Shown here in pieces: positions 8,658 through 59,903 of a stretch of DNA of 64,000 nt; within the stretch, counting starts at the first letter, position 1, and each line of letters begins with the position of its first letter. The position numbers and the translations under genes were made by a program. The DNA is from Eledone cirrhosa. Its lineage: Eukaryota. The notes under the pieces were generated by a model. That model was not told the DNA's origin. It did not search any database and worked only from the letters and a program-made list of their open reading frames with translations. The DNA is taken from assembly GCA_964016885.1 (NCBI GenBank), contig OZ024761.1, positions 19,158,001 to 19,222,000 on the forward strand, given 5' to 3'.

Positions 8658-8690
<33 letters not shown>

Positions 8691-8749
8691 TATTATACTT
8701 GGGGAGGGTCATATTGTTGTAATAATATTGCCAGAATAATAAATTATAT

Positions 8750-12579: not shown

Positions 12580-13225
12580 TTCCTGTCACCAGGGAAACGA
12601 TGACACCTTTTCTGCCAGGAGCTGTGACCAACAGAGAGTGTCAGCAATGGAAAGACCAATGGAAGCAAGTTTCCTTGGTCCGATATGACGGTCGGTTTCT
12701 TTCTTCTGCCAGGAGTTGTATCCAAGAGATAATATCAGCAATGGAAAGACCAATGGAAACATAGTTTCCTTAGACCGATATGATGATGTGCTCTTTCGTC
12801 TGCCAGGTATTGCAATTGGCAGATGATATCAGTAATGGAATAACCAAAGGAAACATTATTTCATCGGTGTAATCTGACGATCGGTTCCTTTCTTCTGCCA
12901 GGAGGTTCATAGTGACAGATAGTGTCAGCAATGGAAAGCTCAATGGAAATATGGTGTCCTTAGTCCAATCTGGAAAATCCGCTCCTTTTCTTTTTGATGA
13001 ATGACAGCCTCACTGGTTACAGATTTCGATTGGGGATGTAGTGACCCTTTCAATCTGAAGCTCCCTTTTCTTTTTGGTGAATGACAGTCTCGCTGGTTGC
13101 AGGTTCCCATTAGGGGTTGAGTGACCCTTTCAATGTGAAGACCCCTTTTCTTTTTTGGTCAATGATAGCCTCGTTGGTTACAGGTTTCCATTAGGGATGG
13201 GGTGACCCTTTCAATCTCAACACCT
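12580..13225. repeat. Two adjacent degenerate tandem arrays (roughly 90-100 bp and ~60 bp units)
   Basis: Recurring cagcaatggaaagaccaatggaa and gtgacccttt caat; related single units near 46150-46230 and 62790-62860. Confidence 0.7.
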
Positions 13226-13447
13226 CTTTTTAGCTAAAAATGAAAAAGAAATAAATATAAATAACTGAAACAACCGGAGCTGTGTAATATATTGTAAACA
13301 GAAATCCATACAAGAAAACATGAATTCAGCAAACGTTTCTCTTACAAATGATCAAAGGCATTCCACCCGTGACCATCTTATCTTTGTCCTTTATGCAGGG
13401 AAACCCCCAAACCACTTTATCCAGAATTTCTTTTCGATTATGCAGAT

Positions 13448-18629: not shown

Positions 18630-19020
18630 TATTATTAAAACACTCAAGAAACCTTCTATAAAATACAACCTTGTAGGAGGCCAGTTAAACCTACGTATAT
18701 GTGAGCTGTAACAACAGCATAATACTGGGACCCCTTTCATTAAAACACCCCAAGAAACCTTCTATAAGATACAACCTCATAGGAGACCAGCTAAACGTAC
18801 ATAGATGTAAGCTGTAACAACATGATAAGATTGAATAAACCTATCATTAAAACCTCCTATAAGATACAACCTTGTAGGCGGTCAGTTAAACCTACGTAAA
18901 TGTGAGCTGTAACAACATGATACGACTAAGGGCCCAAATCATTAAAACACCCGTGGAACCTCCTGTGAGGTGATACCTCATAGAAGGTCACGAAAACCTA
19001 CATAGATGTGATCTGTAAAG
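18630..19020. repeat. ~105 bp tandem repeat, about 4 units
   Basis: Recurring attaaaacac...aagatacaacct...gtgagctgtaacaaca. Confidence 0.75.
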
Positions 19021-26738: not shown

Positions 26739-28255
26739 CCATTTAACGTCCATCTTCCACGCTAGCATGGGTTAGACGGGTTTGTCCCACTTGAGGCAAG
26801 ATTGGTCGGGTGACCGTGTCTCGATCGTATATAACTGCTTCTGGCTAGTTTTCTACGACTGGATGCCCTCCCTAACGCCAACCACATTTACAATGTGGAC
26901 TGGAAGCCTTTTTGACGTGACTCTTACACGACCACTTTATAGTGTGGACTGGGTGCTTTTTGTCGTGACACCTACACGACCACATCACACTCTGGACTGG
27001 ATGTTCTGTGGTACCAACATAATTTTACAGAGCAAGGTGGTGTGGGCAGAAGTGGGAGGATAATATGTTTAATTCAAATGTTTATAGTATCTTTACTAGT
27101 GGACAGAGCATTGAAAAAAATCTATAGTATTAGAGTAAAGACTTATATATTTAATGTGAATCAGTCAGAGCTGTTTTGTATTTTTCAAGAATGTCTTGTG
27201 GTTTGTTAATGTGGTTTCTTGTGGTTTGTTAATTCAAATGTTTGTAGTATCGTTACTAGTGGACAGATCATTGTAAAAATGTATAGTATGAAAGTCTTCA
27301 ATATTCAATGTGATGCAGTCATCGTGCTGTTTTGTACTTTCCAAGAATGTCTTGCTAATATGTTTAATTGAAATGTTTATAGTATCTTTCCTAGTGGACA
27401 GATTATTGTAAAAATCTACAGTATTAGAGTAAAGACATATATTTAATGTGATGCAGTCACATTGCTGTTTTGTATTTTTCAAGAATGTCTTGCTAATGTG
27501 GTTTCATGTTGATTGTTAATTCAAATGTTTGTAGTATCGTTACTAGTGGGCAGATCATTGTAAAAGTTTACTGCTATAGAACAAAGTTTAACTTTAAATA
27601 TGATGCAGTCATAGGGTTGTACTTTCCAAGAATGTGTTGCTAATGTATTTAATTGAAATGTTTATAGTATCTTTACTAGTGGACAGATTATGGTGAAAAT
27701 TCAGAGTAAATTCAGAGTAAAGACATATATTTAATGTGATGCAGTCATACAGCTGTGTTGTATTATTCAAGAATGTCTTGCTAATGTGGTTTTTTTAATT
27801 CAAATGTTTATAGTATCGTTACTAGGGGACAGATTATGGTGAAAATTTGTAGTATCAGAGTAAAGACTTATATATTTAATGTGATGCAGTCATACAGCTG
27901 TGTTGTATTATTCAAGAATGTCTTGCTAATGTGGTTTTTTTAATTCAAATGTTTATAGTATCGTTACTAGGGGACAGATTATGGTGAAAATTTGTAGTAT
28001 CAGAGTAAAGACTTATATATTTAATGTGATGCAGTCATACAGCTGTGTTGTATTATTCAAGAATGTCTTGCTAATGTGGTTTTTTTAATTCAAATGTTTA
28101 TAGTATCGTTACTAGGGGACAGATTATTGTAAAAATTTGCTGTAATAGAATAAAGTCTAACTTTAAATATGATACAGTCATGGTGTACTTTCCAAGAATG
28201 TCTTACTAATGTGGTTTGTTAATTCAAATGTTTATAGTATTTTTATTAGTGGAGA
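26560..28255. repeat. ~140-145 bp satellite array interrupted by an RTE-like insertion (~26708-27060)
   Basis: Units recur at 27781, 27926 and 28071 (145 bp spacing); motif aatgtgatgcagtcat...caagaatgtcttgctaat...aattcaaatgtttatagtatc. Confidence 0.85.
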
Positions 28256-31709: not shown

Positions 31710-31765
31710 ACTGCCTGATGAGGTCATAGCCATTCAATGGCTATCATCGAAATATGTATAGCAGT
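31710..31765 (+). ncRNA. Type I hammerhead ribozyme
   Basis: actgc-CTGATGA-[ggtcatagccatt c aatggctatcatc]-GAAA-tatgta-TA-gcagt then aaataaa. Confidence 0.75.
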
Positions 31766-51756: not shown

Positions 51757-53213
51757 ATAAATATGGTTTTATAAATATAGTTTCCATTTGTTAATATCGT
51801 ATTTTTACTTCAATTATTTGTTGAGTGCTTTATATCAGTTATAAAAATATTTGCTTGTTGTATCCCAACAATTTAAATAGAACTTTTACATATATATATA
51901 TATATACAGTATATATATATATATATACGTCGCTATCTGTGTGTGTGTGTGTATATATGTATATATATAGTGTGTATATATATATATATATATATGCACA
52001 CACACTATATATACATATATACACACACACACAGATAGCGACGTCATAATGTCGTGATGCAGACAGCCAGACATACAGACAGATATTATAAGGGCGCAAC
52101 GTTATATCTATGTATCTATCTAAAAAGAAAGACTAACAATTATAGAGAGAGATCGCTAAATCGCCTAGTGCGGTCCCTAGGGCACTGAAAATTTGAAATA
52201 TTTTTTGCTCAAAGCATTGACAGGACCATAAGTATTATATGTGTAAAGAAAATAATCGGTTGGGTGGTTCTGGAGTTTTAGGGAGTCAGACAGACAGACA
52301 TTCTCTGTTTCAGATATATAGATTACACTCTGCTTTATTCTACACCTCTATACTTACTGGAAACTACGCATCGAGTGCTCATTCTGGTAAACCTACAGTA
52401 ACTGGATGTTACAATCCCTATATATACATACATATACATATATGTATGTATAAAAGCCAACCTTACCCAATTACACCTCTCAAAGGCAATGACATACGAC
52501 CGTGACCTCTGGCGTCACGCAGTAATACAGAGTACCCGACCTCCCATGGGTAAGCTGAAGCATATAGACAATATGCCCTCACACACCCCCACTGCAAAGT
52601 GGACGTGTAGGCGCCACGAAAAAGCACCCAGCACTCACTGTAAATGAGGTTGGTGTTAGGAAGGGCATCCAGCTGTAGAAATCAAGCCAAATCAGTTCCT
52701 GTATGAGCAAGGCATGGTCAGCCGACCAGACACTGCCCACAACAGGACAACCCGTCTAACCCATGCTAGCATGGAAGAACGGACGTAAAACGGTGATGAT
52801 GATGATGATGATATATATATGTACATATAGATATATGTATATATATATATATAGTTAAAAATGGAACGGGAGCAAAACAGAGAGGCAGTACGAACAAAGG
52901 TTTATTAGTTTCACGCTCTTGAGAGTGGGAGGGGTGGGGAACGACGTTTCGGGCATAAGCCCTTCTTCAGGCGGGAAGTGTGTGGGAAGAGAGTTCCGAG
53001 GGTGTGTAGGGGAGTGGAAGAGAGACATTTAGAAAAAAGGGGGGGAGAGGAAAGGGAGGAAAAACGGTGGAAGGGGTACAAATAAAAATTTTTTTAAATA
53101 AAAATAAATATATATATATATACATATATATGTATATAGTTTCGTTGACAAATATATCAATGTGCCCAGACACGCAGCTATATTGCCCTTGGTATGACAG
53201 TGTGGTTTGTATG

Positions 53214-53571: not shown

Positions 53572-53594
53572 TATATATATATATATATAGATAG

Positions 53595-53950
53595 ATGTTT
53601 CCGCAGCAAAACGGCTACCCCACCCCCACCTCCCGGCTGACAGAGAGATGCGTAGATCTCAAAGTCGTCGAAGATGGGGGCCAGCTGTCGCTCGCTGTGG
53701 ATCCTGGACTTGCAAATGACTGCCACATCCATACTGTGCGACCTGAGCTCGTTTAAGAGTTTGCCCTTTTTTCAGGAATAGCCCCAGGCCCCGCACATTC
53801 ACACATCTGACTCTTATATTGGCCATTATTGGTGAGGAAGAATTAGAAAAGAAGTGGAAAGAATCCACTTACCTCCTCGCTTCCTGGAGACCAGGCTGCA
53901 CAATGTCCATGGGGGTGTTGGAGGGGTTGTTTGGTAGGGTGGTGGTTTCT
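53595..53950 (-). pseudogene. Tx1/L1-type LINE ORF2 N-terminal (APE endonuclease) remnant
   Basis: MANIRVRCVNVRGLG... and ...GGVAVLLRK motifs in different frames. Confidence 0.55.
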
Positions 53951-53967
53951 GGTGGGGAGGGGACGGA

Positions 53968-54004
<37 letters not shown>

Positions 54005-54533
54005 ATATTTGGGGAGGGTCATATTTGCGTAATATTGCCAGAATTAATAACAGAACACACTCACTGTTTGGTTGGTTTTCGCTTCTCGCTGTCTTTTATA
54101 TATATATATCTGCGATCTAACTTACTCGGTCCTCAATGTTGCCATTGACTGACCGGCGGTCAAAAATAATACAGATACAATATAGACAAACACATATATA
54201 TATAGTTTACATAAATCTTTCGTTGCACATCTGCAACATCGTCAGTGGTGTTATATTCATTGTTCCTCCTGTTGTGTTGTATGTCTACGCCATTTTTTTT
54301 TTTTTTTTTTTGTTCAGTCTGTCTATATATTTATTTATTTATTTGCTTGTTTGTTTATCTTATTTTATTTTGTCTTCTTTGCGCATGCGTTTGCGTGTGT
54401 GTATAGTGTTATGTGTGATGTGTGATGTGTGACTAGTGTGTATAGTGTTGTCTGCTGGGTGACTAGTGTGTGTTTATGTGCTTGTGTATGTATTTATTTA
54501 TCTTATTTTATTTAATTTAATTTACTTATTTAT

Positions 54534-56762
54534 TTATACTTCTCTTAGGTCAGTGTTGTTTGTTTGGGTGTTGTTGTTGTTCCACTCATTCTTTCTGTTT
54601 AGCTTTGGTCTTCTAATTTCTATTTCACTGGCCTCTCTGATTTGCCTATCTGCTGGGTCATTCCTATGTTTAGATATTATTCTAATTTCTATGTTGTCTA
54701 TGTTACCGTCATGATGTTGTCTAGCATGTTCGTATAGTACTGACCCGTTTTTTCGTCCTTTTAGTTCCCCCCAGTGTTGGTCTATCCTTTCACCTATGCT
54801 ACGAGCTGTCTCACCTATGTATGTTGTTGTCGTGTTTCTGCAAGTACCCTCTGTACATCTTATGCTATAGACTACGTTTCTAGTTTTACAGTTTATCCGG
54901 GGGTTCACCTTACATATGATACATTTCCTATTGGTACAGTGGGTTTTCTTAAAAGGGTAGGTTTTGCTGATCAGGGATTTTATGGTGGTTCCTGGCTTTT
55001 CTACCACCTTTATTTTTAAGTGGGTCTTTCTCAGGGCCTTTCTACACTGGTTAGCTAATTTCCCTCCAGGGGTGGCGTCCACAAACATGACACTCTGATA
55101 TCTCTGGTTGTCGTACCATGATGTGGCCTTCCCTATCTTATGTCTAGCCCTATCTAAGCTATTCCATGATTTGCTCCTGTATAGTGGGCAAATTCCTTTC
55201 ATGTCCAGTTCTATGAGGGTCTTATACTTTTCCATGGCTCCTTCGTATACTCTGACTCTGTCTCTTTGGTTGTAGCCAGAGAACTGCATGCGGTTGATGA
55301 AGTGTTGGATGTGTCCTTCCATTTCTGTTGGGTCGCACATGCTGGACACATTCTTCATCACTCGTACCAAATCTGCGATCAGAATATTAAACTTAGCACT
55401 ACTGGACATTGCTGAGTTTTTGAGTATCAGGTATTTGGAGGCCATGGGTTTAGCATAGTGTGAGTGGAGAATTTGGGCTCTCTCGTCTATAGTGTTAATC
55501 CAGAGTTCTGTGTCTAATACAGGTAGTCTATTGTTAGGGTGTTTGGAAGGGAAGTCTATAGTTACAGTTATACTCTGGTGTATGGAATTAGCTATCTGCT
55601 GGATGCTTTCCATCGTGCTACGTTCTAAATCAAACTTGTTAGTGCTCTCTAGTGGGGGTGTTCTTATAACTATATTGATATCGTCTACATAACGAGAGTA
55701 CATGATGAGGTCTATGGAGCTTTCATTAAGGAGATCTTTAAGTCTCCTTTCCCACCATACCATGAAAAGGTTGGCAACATCGCCAGCTATGCTGACGCCG
55801 ATGGCTGCTCCCTCATTTTGGGTGTAGATTTTCTCATTGAACTTAAATATGTGGCCCTTTAGGGTAGTTTTGATACTAGCCCCTATTGCATGTGCGACCA
55901 TTTTTCTTACCTGATCAGTGTTTTGGGGGGTCCGTATAGCTTTGGTCCACCCAATCCACCTTCCTATGGGAGTCTTTTTAGCCATTGAGGTTATGGTGGG
56001 GGGTCTACCTCTTATAGGTCTACTAGGGCAGAAACATCTAAGGTCATGGCTGTCTAGGTAGTCAGTGTCGTAGGTAAGTCTAAGTAGGAGGCCCAGTTCG
56101 TCTGTGTCGACGTCGCAGAACTCCACCTCACTCTCAATGATCATCTCCACACATCTTTTCACAGCAAAATCAATGTTAATGGATGGGTACAGTGACACCA
56201 CATCCATGCTGCCTATTATGCAGTTGGATAGGCTCCTGTTTTTGTTGCACTCACTGATTCTGCTGAGGAGGTCCTCTGTACTTTCACATACATCTGGGGA
56301 CATCTTGATTATGGGGCGTATAACCATTGAGAGGAAGTAGGAGATCCTGTAGTTGCTAGCTATATTAGCTCCGCATACAGGTCTTGTTGGTGGTCCTATT
56401 GTCGGGTCGTCGACTGTCTTGTGGTCTTTGCGGAGCCCATACAAGGGTGGTATGCCATTGTTAGACGCCTGGAAGTTGTTGGCAGTGCGTCTGCTTGGCT
56501 TTAGGATGTCAGTCCACATCATCATGTGAGCGTTGAGGATTTTTTCTCTCCCATCGTGTGTTAGTTGTGCAACTTCGCTCGTGTTGGTGATGTGGGGTTG
56601 CATTGCCTCGATGTAGTTCGGCATGCTATCTATTGACATCCTACCAGACTTATCTGTGGGTAGACACACTACCTCACCATCCCTTGTGCGCTGCTTGAGG
56701 CTAACCAAGCCTTCTACAGGTTTTATCCCAAGTTGTTGGGCCTCTGGTCTGCTCTGTCTCAT
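54534..56762 (-). CDS. Penelope-like RT + GIY-YIG endonuclease (742 aa, N-terminally truncated)
   Basis: TDKS, YGLRKDHK, TRPV, SMDVVSLYPSI, QNEGAAIG, RYVDD, LPVLD, YAKP; linker CTNRKCIIC; VVYSIRC...YIGETARSIGERIDQH. Confidence 0.92.
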   Translation of the reverse strand: MRQSRPEAQQLGIKPVEGLVSLKQRTRDGEVVCLPTDKSGRMSIDSMPNYIEAMQPHITNTSEVAQLTHDGREKILNAHMMMWTDILKPSRRTANNFQASNNGIPPLYGLRKDHKTVDDPTIGPPTRPVCGANIASNYRISYFLSMVIRPIIKMSPDVCESTEDLLSRISECNKNRSLSNCIIGSMDVVSLYPSINIDFAVKRCVEMIIESEVEFCDVDTDELGLLLRLTYDTDYLDSHDLRCFCPSRPIRGRPPTITSMAKKTPIGRWIGWTKAIRTPQNTDQVRKMVAHAIGASIKTTLKGHIFKFNEKIYTQNEGAAIGVSIAGDVANLFMVWWERRLKDLLNESSIDLIMYSRYVDDINIVIRTPPLESTNKFDLERSTMESIQQIANSIHQSITVTIDFPSKHPNNRLPVLDTELWINTIDERAQILHSHYAKPMASKYLILKNSAMSSSAKFNILIADLVRVMKNVSSMCDPTEMEGHIQHFINRMQFSGYNQRDRVRVYEGAMEKYKTLIELDMKGICPLYRSKSWNSLDRARHKIGKATSWYDNQRYQSVMFVDATPGGKLANQCRKALRKTHLKIKVVEKPGTTIKSLISKTYPFKKTHCTNRKCIICKVNPRINCKTRNVVYSIRCTEGTCRNTTTTYIGETARSIGERIDQHWGELKGRKNGSVLYEHARQHHDGNIDNIEIRIISKHRNDPADRQIREASEIEIRRPKLNRKNEWNNNNTQTNNTDLREV

Positions 56763-56859
56763 AGTGTACCTGTCTACTACTTGTCAAATAGATGACGAGA
56801 CGGAGGCACAGTTCACCATAGCTAGAAATAAGATTAGACAAGTAGTAGACAGGTACACT

Positions 56860-59088
56860 ATGAGACAGAGCAGACCAGAGGCCCAACAACTTGGGATAAA
56901 ACCTGTAGAAGGCTTGGTTAGCCTCAAGCAGCGCACAAGGGATGGTGAGGTAGTGTGTCTACCCACAGATAAGTCTGGTAGGATGTCAATAGATAGCATG
57001 CCGAACTACATCGAGGCAATGCAACCCCACATCACCAACACGAGCGAAGTTGCACAACTAACACACGATGGGAGAGAAAAAATCCTCAACGCTCACATGA
57101 TGATGTGGACTGACATCCTAAAGCCAAGCAGACGCACTGCCAACAACTTCCAGGCGTCTAACAATGGCATACCACCCTTGTATGGGCTCCGCAAAGACCA
57201 CAAGACAGTCGACGACCCGACAATAGGACCACCAACAAGACCTGTATGCGGAGCTAATATAGCTAGCAACTACAGGATCTCCTACTTCCTCTCAATGGTT
57301 ATACGCCCCATAATCAAGATGTCCCCAGATGTATGTGAAAGTACAGAGGACCTCCTCAGCAGAATCAGTGAGTGCAACAAAAACAGGAGCCTATCCAACT
57401 GCATAATAGGCAGCATGGATGTGGTGTCACTGTACCCATCCATTAACATTGATTTTGCTGTGAAAAGATGTGTGGAGATGATCATTGAGAGTGAGGTGGA
57501 GTTCTGCGACGTCGACACAGACGAACTGGGCCTCCTACTTAGACTTACCTACGACACTGACTACCTAGACAGCCATGACCTTAGATGTTTCTGCCCTAGT
57601 AGACCTATAAGAGGTAGACCCCCCACCATAACCTCAATGGCTAAAAAGACTCCCATAGGAAGGTGGATTGGGTGGACCAAAGCTATACGGACCCCCCAAA
57701 ACACTGATCAGGTAAGAAAAATGGTCGCACATGCAATAGGGGCTAGTATCAAAACTACCCTAAAGGGCCACATATTTAAGTTCAATGAGAAAATCTACAC
57801 CCAAAATGAGGGAGCAGCCATCGGCGTCAGCATAGCTGGCGATGTTGCCAACCTTTTCATGGTATGGTGGGAAAGGAGACTTAAAGATCTCCTTAATGAA
57901 AGCTCCATAGACCTCATCATGTACTCTCGTTATGTAGACGATATCAATATAGTTATAAGAACACCCCCACTAGAGAGCACTAACAAGTTTGATTTAGAAC
58001 GTAGCACGATGGAAAGCATCCAGCAGATAGCTAATTCCATACACCAGAGTATAACTGTAACTATAGACTTCCCTTCCAAACACCCTAACAATAGACTACC
58101 TGTATTAGACACAGAACTCTGGATTAACACTATAGACGAGAGAGCCCAAATTCTCCACTCACACTATGCTAAACCCATGGCCTCCAAATACCTGATACTC
58201 AAAAACTCAGCAATGTCCAGTAGTGCTAAGTTTAATATTCTGATCGCAGATTTGGTACGAGTGATGAAGAATGTGTCCAGCATGTGCGACCCAACAGAAA
58301 TGGAAGGACACATCCAACACTTCATCAACCGCATGCAGTTCTCTGGCTACAACCAAAGAGACAGAGTCAGAGTATACGAAGGAGCCATGGAAAAGTATAA
58401 GACCCTCATAGAACTGGACATGAAAGGAATTTGCCCACTATACAGGAGCAAATCATGGAATAGCTTAGATAGGGCTAGACATAAGATAGGGAAGGCCACA
58501 TCATGGTACGACAACCAGAGATATCAGAGTGTCATGTTTGTGGACGCCACCCCTGGAGGGAAATTAGCTAACCAGTGTAGAAAGGCCCTGAGAAAGACCC
58601 ACTTAAAAATAAAGGTGGTAGAAAAGCCAGGAACCACCATAAAATCCCTGATCAGCAAAACCTACCCTTTTAAGAAAACCCACTGTACCAATAGGAAATG
58701 TATCATATGTAAGGTGAACCCCCGGATAAACTGTAAAACTAGAAACGTAGTCTATAGCATAAGATGTACAGAGGGTACTTGCAGAAACACGACAACAACA
58801 TACATAGGTGAGACAGCTCGTAGCATAGGTGAAAGGATAGACCAACACTGGGGGGAACTAAAAGGACGAAAAAACGGGTCAGTACTATACGAACATGCTA
58901 GACAACATCATGACGGTAACATAGACAACATAGAAATTAGAATAATATCTAAACATAGGAATGACCCAGCAGATAGGCAAATCAGAGAGGCCAGTGAAAT
59001 AGAAATTAGAAGACCAAAGCTAAACAGAAAGAATGAGTGGAACAACAACAACACCCAAACAAACAACACTGACCTAAGAGAAGTATAA
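56860..59088 (+). CDS. Penelope-like RT + GIY-YIG endonuclease (identical 742 aa; frame open upstream through the spacer)
   Basis: Same protein as the minus copy; the part of the 821 aa ORF-track call upstream of ~56786 is antisense read-through of the left arm. Confidence 0.92.
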   Translation: MRQSRPEAQQLGIKPVEGLVSLKQRTRDGEVVCLPTDKSGRMSIDSMPNYIEAMQPHITNTSEVAQLTHDGREKILNAHMMMWTDILKPSRRTANNFQASNNGIPPLYGLRKDHKTVDDPTIGPPTRPVCGANIASNYRISYFLSMVIRPIIKMSPDVCESTEDLLSRISECNKNRSLSNCIIGSMDVVSLYPSINIDFAVKRCVEMIIESEVEFCDVDTDELGLLLRLTYDTDYLDSHDLRCFCPSRPIRGRPPTITSMAKKTPIGRWIGWTKAIRTPQNTDQVRKMVAHAIGASIKTTLKGHIFKFNEKIYTQNEGAAIGVSIAGDVANLFMVWWERRLKDLLNESSIDLIMYSRYVDDINIVIRTPPLESTNKFDLERSTMESIQQIANSIHQSITVTIDFPSKHPNNRLPVLDTELWINTIDERAQILHSHYAKPMASKYLILKNSAMSSSAKFNILIADLVRVMKNVSSMCDPTEMEGHIQHFINRMQFSGYNQRDRVRVYEGAMEKYKTLIELDMKGICPLYRSKSWNSLDRARHKIGKATSWYDNQRYQSVMFVDATPGGKLANQCRKALRKTHLKIKVVEKPGTTIKSLISKTYPFKKTHCTNRKCIICKVNPRINCKTRNVVYSIRCTEGTCRNTTTTYIGETARSIGERIDQHWGELKGRKNGSVLYEHARQHHDGNIDNIEIRIISKHRNDPADRQIREASEIEIRRPKLNRKNEWNNNNTQTNNTDLREV

Positions 59089-59370
59089 ATAAATAAGTAA
59101 ATTAAATTAAATAAAATAAGATAAATAAATACATACACAAGCACATAAACACACACTAGTCACCCAGCAGACAACACTATACACACTAGTCACACATCAC
59201 ACATCACACATAACACTATACACACACGCAAACGCATGCGCAAAGAAGACAAAATAAAATAAGATAAACAAACAAGCAAATAAATAAATAAATATATAGA
59301 CAGACTGAACAAAAAAAAAAAAAAAATGGCGTAGACATACAACACAACAGGAGGAACAATGAATATAACA

Positions 59371-59410
59371 CCACTGACGATGTTGCAGATGTGCAACGAA
59401 AGATTTATGT
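59371..59410 (+). ncRNA. Minimal hammerhead motif in the Penelope-like 3' pLTR (mirror copy 54209-54248 -)
   Basis: cca-CTGACGA-t-gttgca-gatg-tgcaac-GAAA-gatt-TA-tg; perfect stem II, weak stem I. Confidence 0.6.
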
Positions 59411-59514
59411 AAACTATATATATATGTGTTTGTCTATATTGTATCTGTATTATTTTTGACCGCCGGTCAGTCAATGGCAACATTGAGGACCGAGTAAGTT
59501 AGATCGCAGATATA

Positions 59515-59526
59515 TATATATAAAAG
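59515..59526 (+). promoter_or_regulatory. Possible TATA box of the pLTR promoter
   Basis: tatataaaag about 30 nt upstream of cagtgagt; motif only. Confidence 0.3.
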
Positions 59527-59848
59527 ACAGCGAGAAGCGAAAACCAACCAAACAGTGAGTGTGTTCTGTTATTAATTCTGGCAATATTACGCAAATATGA
59601 CCCTCCCCAAATATAACAATATCTGTTTCGACACACGATTTCATATAAAAAACCTCGCAAAACTATATATATATATATATATATATAACAAAGAAATAGC
59701 CGTCGAAACAGCTTGAGGTCTGCCGTCGGGGTCCTGAGCATTTTCATATATATATATCAATGATATTATACTCCAGAAAATCTGTAGAGTGCTTTGAATC
59801 TGTTATAAATAAATTTGTTGAAAAACCAACAAATTAAATATCTCTTTG

Positions 59849-59903
<55 letters not shown>

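Follow-up and report, generated by a model that had tools for sequence, protein, structure and literature searches.

Known Penelope-like insertions and the Eledone cirrhosa locus

The published insertion pattern of Penelope-like elements (PLEs) includes an inverted part, an adjacent 5'-truncated copy; the passages of Craig et al. (2021, PMC8557442) that describe it state no length limit, contain no distribution of arm lengths, and report a tail of 30–40 bp that is often one-ended. In the Adineta vaga element Pen2a_Av, the pseudo-long terminal repeat (pLTR) holds the first 12 codons of the open reading frame (ORF), the tail extends this stretch to 22 amino acids, and palindromes at inverted head-to-head junctions were read as self-priming, according to the relevant sections of that work (Arkhipova et al. 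2013, PMC3846280). Young copies of Drosophila virilis Penelope are described as carrying long inverted repeats with matching small interfering RNAs (siRNAs) in the sections of PMC3681739 and PMC3136932 that deal with them. For an Anolis PLE, the tail was placed between two reverse transcriptase (RT) start sites inside the ORF, and the integration steps after first-strand synthesis are stated there to be unvalidated (PMC11167929, relevant sections). We analyzed a 64,000-nt stretch of the Eledone cirrhosa genome (GenBank assembly GCA_964016885.1, contig OZ024761.1, positions 19,158,001 to 19,222,000, forward strand; hereafter, the window, numbered from its first nucleotide), in which an endonuclease-bearing PLE forms a palindrome at 53997–59663. 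It is read here as one young insertion unit of two 5'-truncated head-to-head copies, whose mirror arm arose when the first complementary DNA (cDNA) folded back and was then copied, an origin to which we give an even chance; that the locus is one real insertion unit is highly probable.

The locus shares with the canonical unit, as set out in the corresponding passages of PMC8557442, 5' truncation, an adjacent inverted 5'-truncated copy, a tail at one end, a hammerhead in the terminal repeat, and a (TA)n target. It differs in that no upstream pLTR or partial tandem was kept, the two arms measure about 2.8 kb each and are almost equal in length, and the tail has 41 bp instead of 30–40 bp. Pen2a_Av and its relatives, as far as described in PMC3846280, likewise have ORF codons in the pLTR extended by the tail to 22 (12 plus tail there, about 9 plus tail here), and head-to-head inverted junctions are common to both. 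However, a 181-bp inverted pLTR stands beside a full-length ORF there, whereas 2.8 kb is inverted here, and the 9-bp target duplication readable there is hidden in (TA)n here. Long inverted repeats within young insertions, proposed as a source of double-stranded RNA and siRNA, are the point of likeness to D. virilis Penelope in the accounts cited above; that element belongs to another clade, with no linker zinc finger in Penelope/Poseidon.

The architecture is already described, and the locus is structurally ordinary, standing at the long-arm end of the published insertion pattern; less usual are the length of the arms and an offset of 52 nt combined with a microhomology in which four of five positions pair. 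Twin priming of the long interspersed nuclear element LINE-1 (L1) leaves inverted a portion of the element that does not overlap the rest. LINE-1 resembles the locus in second priming or hairpin self-priming at short microhomology, but the inverted duplications in the relevant part of bioRxiv 10.1101/2024.12.14.628481 are of host DNA, whereas here the duplicated sequence is the element itself, from end to end. No distribution of arm lengths or offsets was found in the literature covered on inverted PLE copies, with older subscription papers and Repbase outside its scope, and the relevant passages of PMC13282606, PMC12910113, and bioRxiv 10.64898/2026.07.22.740005 contained nothing on this architecture. 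The initial annotation of the window had presented an inverted part reaching beyond the pLTR as a departure from the known pattern; this view was not upheld, since no length limit is set in the passages of PMC8557442 and long inverted repeats of Drosophila Penelope are already on record in those of PMC3681739 and PMC3136932.

Structure of the palindromic insertion

The insertion and its target consist of the following parts.

53972–53999, no strand: left (TA)n target run, 28 bp, whose final bases overlap the ATAT ending the tail-less arm
53997–56785, minus strand: inverted 5'-truncated copy with a tail-less 3' end, the mirror of 56837–59622
56785–56837, plus strand: junction, with 56785 as the first native element base and a loop at 56790–56832 (43 nt)
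56785–56789 versus 56833–56837: 5-nt inverted microhomology at the junction, 4/5 positions pairing
56785–59663, plus strand: 2879-bp direct copy, 5'-truncated and tailed
59664–59687, no strand: right (TA)12 target run, 24 bp

Reverse-complement alignment of the arms at 53997–56785 (2789 bp) and 56837–59622 (2786 bp) showed no substitutions and a single 3-bp homopolymer gap, the sole difference being T19 at 54293–54311 versus A16 at 59311–59326. The 51-bp spacer (56786–56836) is in frame with the plus-strand copy. Past one mismatch, three extra base pairs (56787–56789 with 56833–56835) reduce the unpaired loop to 43 nt, and the breakpoints of the two arms are offset by 52 nt. Both insertion ends abut pure TA runs and are embedded in them, so any target-site duplication is unreadable there. 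The DNA beyond the two runs is unrelated on the left and right (best local score 15). The window is rich in microsatellites, and no comparable inverted repeat was found elsewhere in its 64 kb, the runner-up being a microsatellite of 718 nt and 78%. A search of Rfam over 56700–59900 gave five matches, all of them to microRNA models, placed on the central hairpin and scoring far under the gathering thresholds; they are an effect of the palindrome.

The initial annotation was borne out in part by this comparison. It had described a near-perfect palindrome with arms of about 2.8 kb that encode the same 742-aa product and differ in a single homopolymer, a 51-bp spacer continuing the frame of the plus-strand copy, and a terminal extension on the right copy only, which proved to be 41 bp long (59623–59663). 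A young single insertion into (TA)n and an optional tail, also proposed there, are supported.

Truncation of the 5' ends

The retained frame is open but begins within the conserved N-terminal region, and the methionine of the 742-aa product is internal. Among 90 relatives aligned from the first 45 residues, 55 run at least 100 residues further upstream and 33 at least 250; many of the remaining relatives are themselves fragments. Six relatives with long N-termini and 42–50% identity (P0007, P0010, P0018, P0029, P0039, and P0053) extend 277–319 residues. The spacer-encoded IDDETEAQF aligns to a conserved motif of the relatives, and the plus-strand frame upstream of it is the antisense of the left arm, with no alignment to relatives.

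One 573-nt contig of run X4 (contig 9) covers 56785–56896 with no differences and carries 461 additional upstream letters matching nothing in the stretch. In five contigs of run X1, the loose end before 56785 reads PFNKRVCIPQ (compare LPFNKRVYIP of an Octopus vulgaris protein), and a motif of this type precedes this point in relatives. Native element sequence therefore begins at 56785, because the X4 contig and the X1 loose ends continue upstream there. Summed contig depth in X1, which is depth and not copy number, is about 40-fold higher at the 3' end than near 56785; this gradient is the usual profile of 5' truncation.

Both arms are thus 5'-truncated, without some 280–320 N-terminal residues (the N-terminal third of the ORF), and both lack the promoter-side pLTR. 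The insertion unit was likely dead on arrival because these two parts are missing in both arms. The copies had initially been annotated as having intact ORFs, which does not hold, since relatives carry about 280–320 more N-terminal residues and contigs continue with native sequence upstream of 56785. The 742-aa product was rejected as the full protein on account of the longer N-termini in relatives and contigs.

Tail, terminal repeat, and hammerhead

Four features define the ends of the element.

54218–54245, minus strand: hammerhead core of the left-arm terminal repeat
59374–59401, plus strand: hammerhead core in the terminal repeat (CTGACGA, unpaired base, 6-bp stem II, GAAA)
59597–59663, plus strand: 3'-end repeat of the element's own ORF start (22 codons, MTLPKYNNICFDTRFHIKNLAK)
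59623–59663, plus strand: 41-bp tail, right end only

The ATG at 59597 opens this 22-residue peptide at the right end, whereas the left-end frame halts after MTLPKYNNI and passes into TA. The best local match of the peptide among 257 proteins was at residue 6 of P0039 (score 37, reached by none of 1000 shuffles). Twelve X4 contigs have a loose end after 59643 that continues in frame (IRNLAKQIQ), beyond the switch of the window to TA. The 41-bp extension is the standard Penelope-like tail continuing the ORF start, and the 3' terminal repeat (pLTR) is predicted to include the first ORF codons. Host flank was rejected as the source of the extension, which shares the frame of the ORF start and is prolonged in a related contig.

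The hammerhead motif of the pLTR is recognizable at the level of the core, and its cleavage is putative. The core at 59374–59401 has the unpaired base before stem II that is a feature of minimal PLE hammerheads in the relevant part of PMC4209133. The Rfam search over 56700–59900 returned no hammerhead family. Five further hammerhead-like cores lie in the window at 31715(+), 51703(+), 52970(-), 33923(-), and 18024(-), those at 52970 and 33923 in similar repeats of about 200 bp.

The tail-less boundary recurs independently. A 56-bp relative (86%) at 8687–8742 on the minus strand, a lone tail-less 3'-end fragment between two TA runs, stops in (TA)n at this very base, and a contig of run X7 runs on into (AT)n past 59622. 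The last bases of the tail-less end are ATAT (59619–59622), which is able to pair with (TA)n, whereas the tailed end (59663) has no homology to the target.

This boundary bears on an origin of the palindrome after insertion, either by host fold-back repair of a break in a single copy or by two insertions into one TA run, or with the arms kept identical by arm-to-arm conversion. Resected ends self-anneal into inverted duplications at L1 sites, as described in part of bioRxiv 10.1101/2024.12.14.628481, and (TA)n is a repeatedly used target. Nevertheless, such an origin is very improbable: the arms are separated by neither a TA run nor host DNA, the limit of the duplication is the tail-less boundary of the element itself and does not fall in host DNA, and the arms have no substitutions.

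Joints of the family in reads and contigs

Run X24 contains raw reduced-representation reads, mostly 90–99% alike to the element, from a species that may differ from that of the window; 15 of its 178 joints were listed, and the counts below refer to these. Two restriction enzymes can be inferred from read starts and ends at GCATGC and AATT sites. Ten of the 15 joints link opposite strands, and none of these ten falls on such a site. By predicted side lengths, eight fit a head-to-head and two a tail-to-tail geometry (one fits both and one neither). The inverted partner is short in eight (78–215 nt, assuming that it reaches the 3' end), both arms would exceed 1.3 kb in two, and the joint offsets range from 196 to 2747 nt. 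Every joint shows a single start position, which this library type would give and copies of one molecule would give equally.

Among the listed joints, no read or contig crosses 56785/56837, and none of the pieces spans the stretch. For the locus, this gap counts neither in favor nor against, because low-coverage contigs and reduced-representation reads seldom hold single-copy junctions. In addition, head-to-head junctions may amplify poorly, as stated in a passage of PMC5932611. Pieces of up to 821 nt with 0–2 differences from the window were found in X4 (label B), and a 373-nt piece with no differences in X7 (label D).

The palindrome could be a chimera of assembly or library, in which a fold-back read joined two near-identical copies, one tailed and one tail-less, together with their flanks. 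Short-microhomology inverted joints are characteristic of amplification chimeras, and the missing junction and the near-identical X4 copies point the same way. We still consider this improbable, since the mirror halts at the known tail-less end of the element and enters neither of the two unrelated flanks, a tail on one side agrees with the published expectation for a true unit, and opposite-strand joints of the family occur away from restriction sites in independent raw reads. The absence of a single-copy junction from data of this kind is, as said, to be expected.

Origin of the mirror arm

In the preferred origin by cDNA fold-back, the GIY-YIG nuclease would nick the (TA)n target, and reverse transcription would start at the tailed site (59663), which has no target homology, and run 2879 nt to 56785. 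The 3' end of the cDNA would then pair 48 nt back through four of five bases and extend along itself. The other target end would be joined at the ATAT of the element (59619–59622), and the tail would therefore be lost on that side. The pairing at 56785 involves four of five positions, including the terminal base. Equally good microhomology occurs in 1.2% of random breakpoint pairs 20–150 nt apart, and the chance that independent truncations fall no more than 52 nt apart is about 2–4%. These figures favor a coupled process, of which fold-back is the simplest.

The same unit could have been produced by twin priming, with both strands nicked, cDNAs started from the tailed and ATAT sites on one RNA or on two, both stopping at nearly the same position, and annealed to each other at their 3' ends through the 5-nt microhomology. 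We regard this as possible and hold it tentatively. According to the relevant parts of PMC11167929, both target strands are nicked and extended by a purified PLE protein, which starts at two sites bounding the tail and is predicted to form a dimer. The isolated tail-less end at 8687–8742 and the wide variation of family joint offsets (196–2747 nt among the joints listed) also fit twin priming, and a shared broken 5' end of the RNA would halt both cDNAs together. Against it, independent stops would give an offset of at most 52 nt at 2.8 kb with only the 2–4% chance given above, and summed contig depth near 56800, again depth and not copy number, is 2–4% of that at the 3' end. Fold-back is favored over independent twin priming because of the 52-nt offset with its 4/5 microhomology. 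Both routes had been named in the initial annotation, and both are supported as candidates.

Several points weigh against fold-back. Its stem is unstable alone (+4.5 kcal/mol for the forced structure, with no structure predicted). No offset below 196 nt occurs among the ten listed opposite-strand joints of X24, and the short inverted partners in eight of them look like products of twin priming; libraries of this kind amplify hairpins poorly, and 163 further joints exist beyond those listed. The lone tail-less fragment at 8.7 kb indicates that such an end can form without a mirror partner, the junction of the locus is absent from reads among the 15 of 178 joints, and the match of the N-terminal peptide is modest, with 3 of 16 long relatives at shuffle p < 0.05. 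The chance figures are post hoc, and a many-copy genome will contain some such cases. Fold-back and annealed twin priming give the same sequence, and therefore one locus cannot decide between them.

Encoded protein and clade placement

The coding regions and motifs are as follows.

54534–56783, minus strand: left-arm open frame, 749 aa between stop codons (742 aa when counted from an internal methionine)
56788–59088, plus strand: retained ORF, 766 aa, with RT, linker, and GIY-YIG nuclease
ORF residues: DKSG at 61; D..SLYPSI at 211; YVDD at 382; CX4CX2C linker at 633; GIY-YIG domain with CCHH at 654–750

The same 742-aa product starts from methionines at 56860(+) and 56762(-). A structure model of the protein built from 63 sequences had a predicted local distance difference test (pLDDT) value of 88.8. 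As modeled, the protein most resembles telomerase RTs, which occupied nine of the top ten Foldseek rows and ranks 1, 2, and 4 in VIA (best Z 15.5, root-mean-square deviation [rmsd] 3.9, 275 aligned), and modeled residues 652–749 matched the GIY-YIG domain of I-TevI in VIA (Z 10.5, rmsd 2.1, 88 of 92). Atlas clusters for the nuclease scored 0.96 and contained PF01541 in 31% of members. Both the CCHH motif and the R/H/E/N nuclease residues are present (motifs at 660–707, 733, and 744), and in the linker CTNRKCIIC at 633 the cysteines C633, C638, and C641 are at least 90% conserved across the 63 sequences. Pfam gave only RVT_1 below the cut-off and no GIY-YIG match for the protein, and a PDB sequence-profile search gave only four weak matches (two bacterial RTs and two histones). 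The nuclease domain folded alone without an alignment had a pLDDT of 37.5 and was not used.

The element is an endonuclease-bearing Penelope-like retroelement, with a telomerase-like RT and, at the C terminus, a GIY-YIG nuclease; these domains, the tail, and the hammerhead core bear out the Penelope-like identity given in the initial annotation. By the motif definitions in the consulted part of PMC8557442, the linker and the C-terminal GIY-YIG with CCHH fit Neptune or Nematis, which share this nuclease and a CX2-5CxxC linker but have a DKG motif where this element has DKS. The nuclease layout is as in two Neptune rows of the supplement of PMC8557442, compared by eye.

Three other placements were rejected on definitions from the same passages. 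Hydra is defined by the absence of CCHH, a CxCX5C linker, and DKT, whereas the element has CCHH, CX4CX2C, and DKS. Naiad/Chlamys have an N-terminal nuclease and no canonical hammerhead, whereas here the nuclease is C-terminal and a hammerhead core is present; two octopus rows noticed in that supplement are Naiads, unlike this element. Penelope/Poseidon have no zinc-finger-like linker between RT and nuclease, and the element has this linker.

The closest named protein is from O. vulgaris (68% identity). In P0093, an O. vulgaris model named as a dynein regulatory complex subunit, the first 149 residues are 74% identical to the RT of the element, and by its sequence this is likely a gene model fused to an element copy. 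The family may be unnamed so far. Near-identical element sequence appears under several organism labels (11 rows with a share of at least 0.23 span 8 labels), which may reflect close relatives, mixed samples, or horizontal spread.

Other features of the window

The left flank at 53590–53972 on the minus strand contains a decayed, frameshifted start of an apurinic/apyrimidinic endonuclease frame (MANIRVRCVNVRGL..., then ...GVAVLLRK). Atlas features pointed to PF03372 (41% of members, score 0.95), this frame had no match in Pfam, and it likely represents a LINE ORF2 as far as its sequence indicates. A 10-bp inverted match by eye between the tail (59625–59634) and the right flank (59703–59712) is probably chance or the end of another element; at the latter position, the flank looks by eye like the second half of a hammerhead (a stem strand, then GAAAC). 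Tandem arrays occupy 27220–28253, 12610–13230, and 18649–19018, with units of 145/290, 94 and 81, and 95/201 bp. A pattern search of metagenome contigs for related loci gave 69 matches, of which none was confirmed, and a scan with bacterial promoter models, which are not apt for this sequence, found 2 sites versus 1.7 expected.

Significance for the insertion of Penelope-like elements

The family is young, with readable centers and two fixed 3' ends, so that counts of junction offsets could separate fold-back from twin priming. Should the locus be real and transcribed from end to end, its hairpin of 2.8 kb could be a source of siRNA that targets the family, along the lines proposed for Drosophila Penelope; the long double-stranded RNA or cruciform suggested in the initial annotation is putative. 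A more speculative and doubtful extension is that three priming modes acted in one event, namely homology-free priming at the tailed site, fold-back at the center, and ATAT–(TA)n pairing at the tail-less site. If true, the one-sided tail of microsatellite-targeting PLEs would be set by the ATAT within the ORF start, and long reads of this young, abundant family would show two-peaked junction offsets, with a fold-back spike below 100 nt and a broad twin-priming class. This would settle how PLEs make inverted copies.

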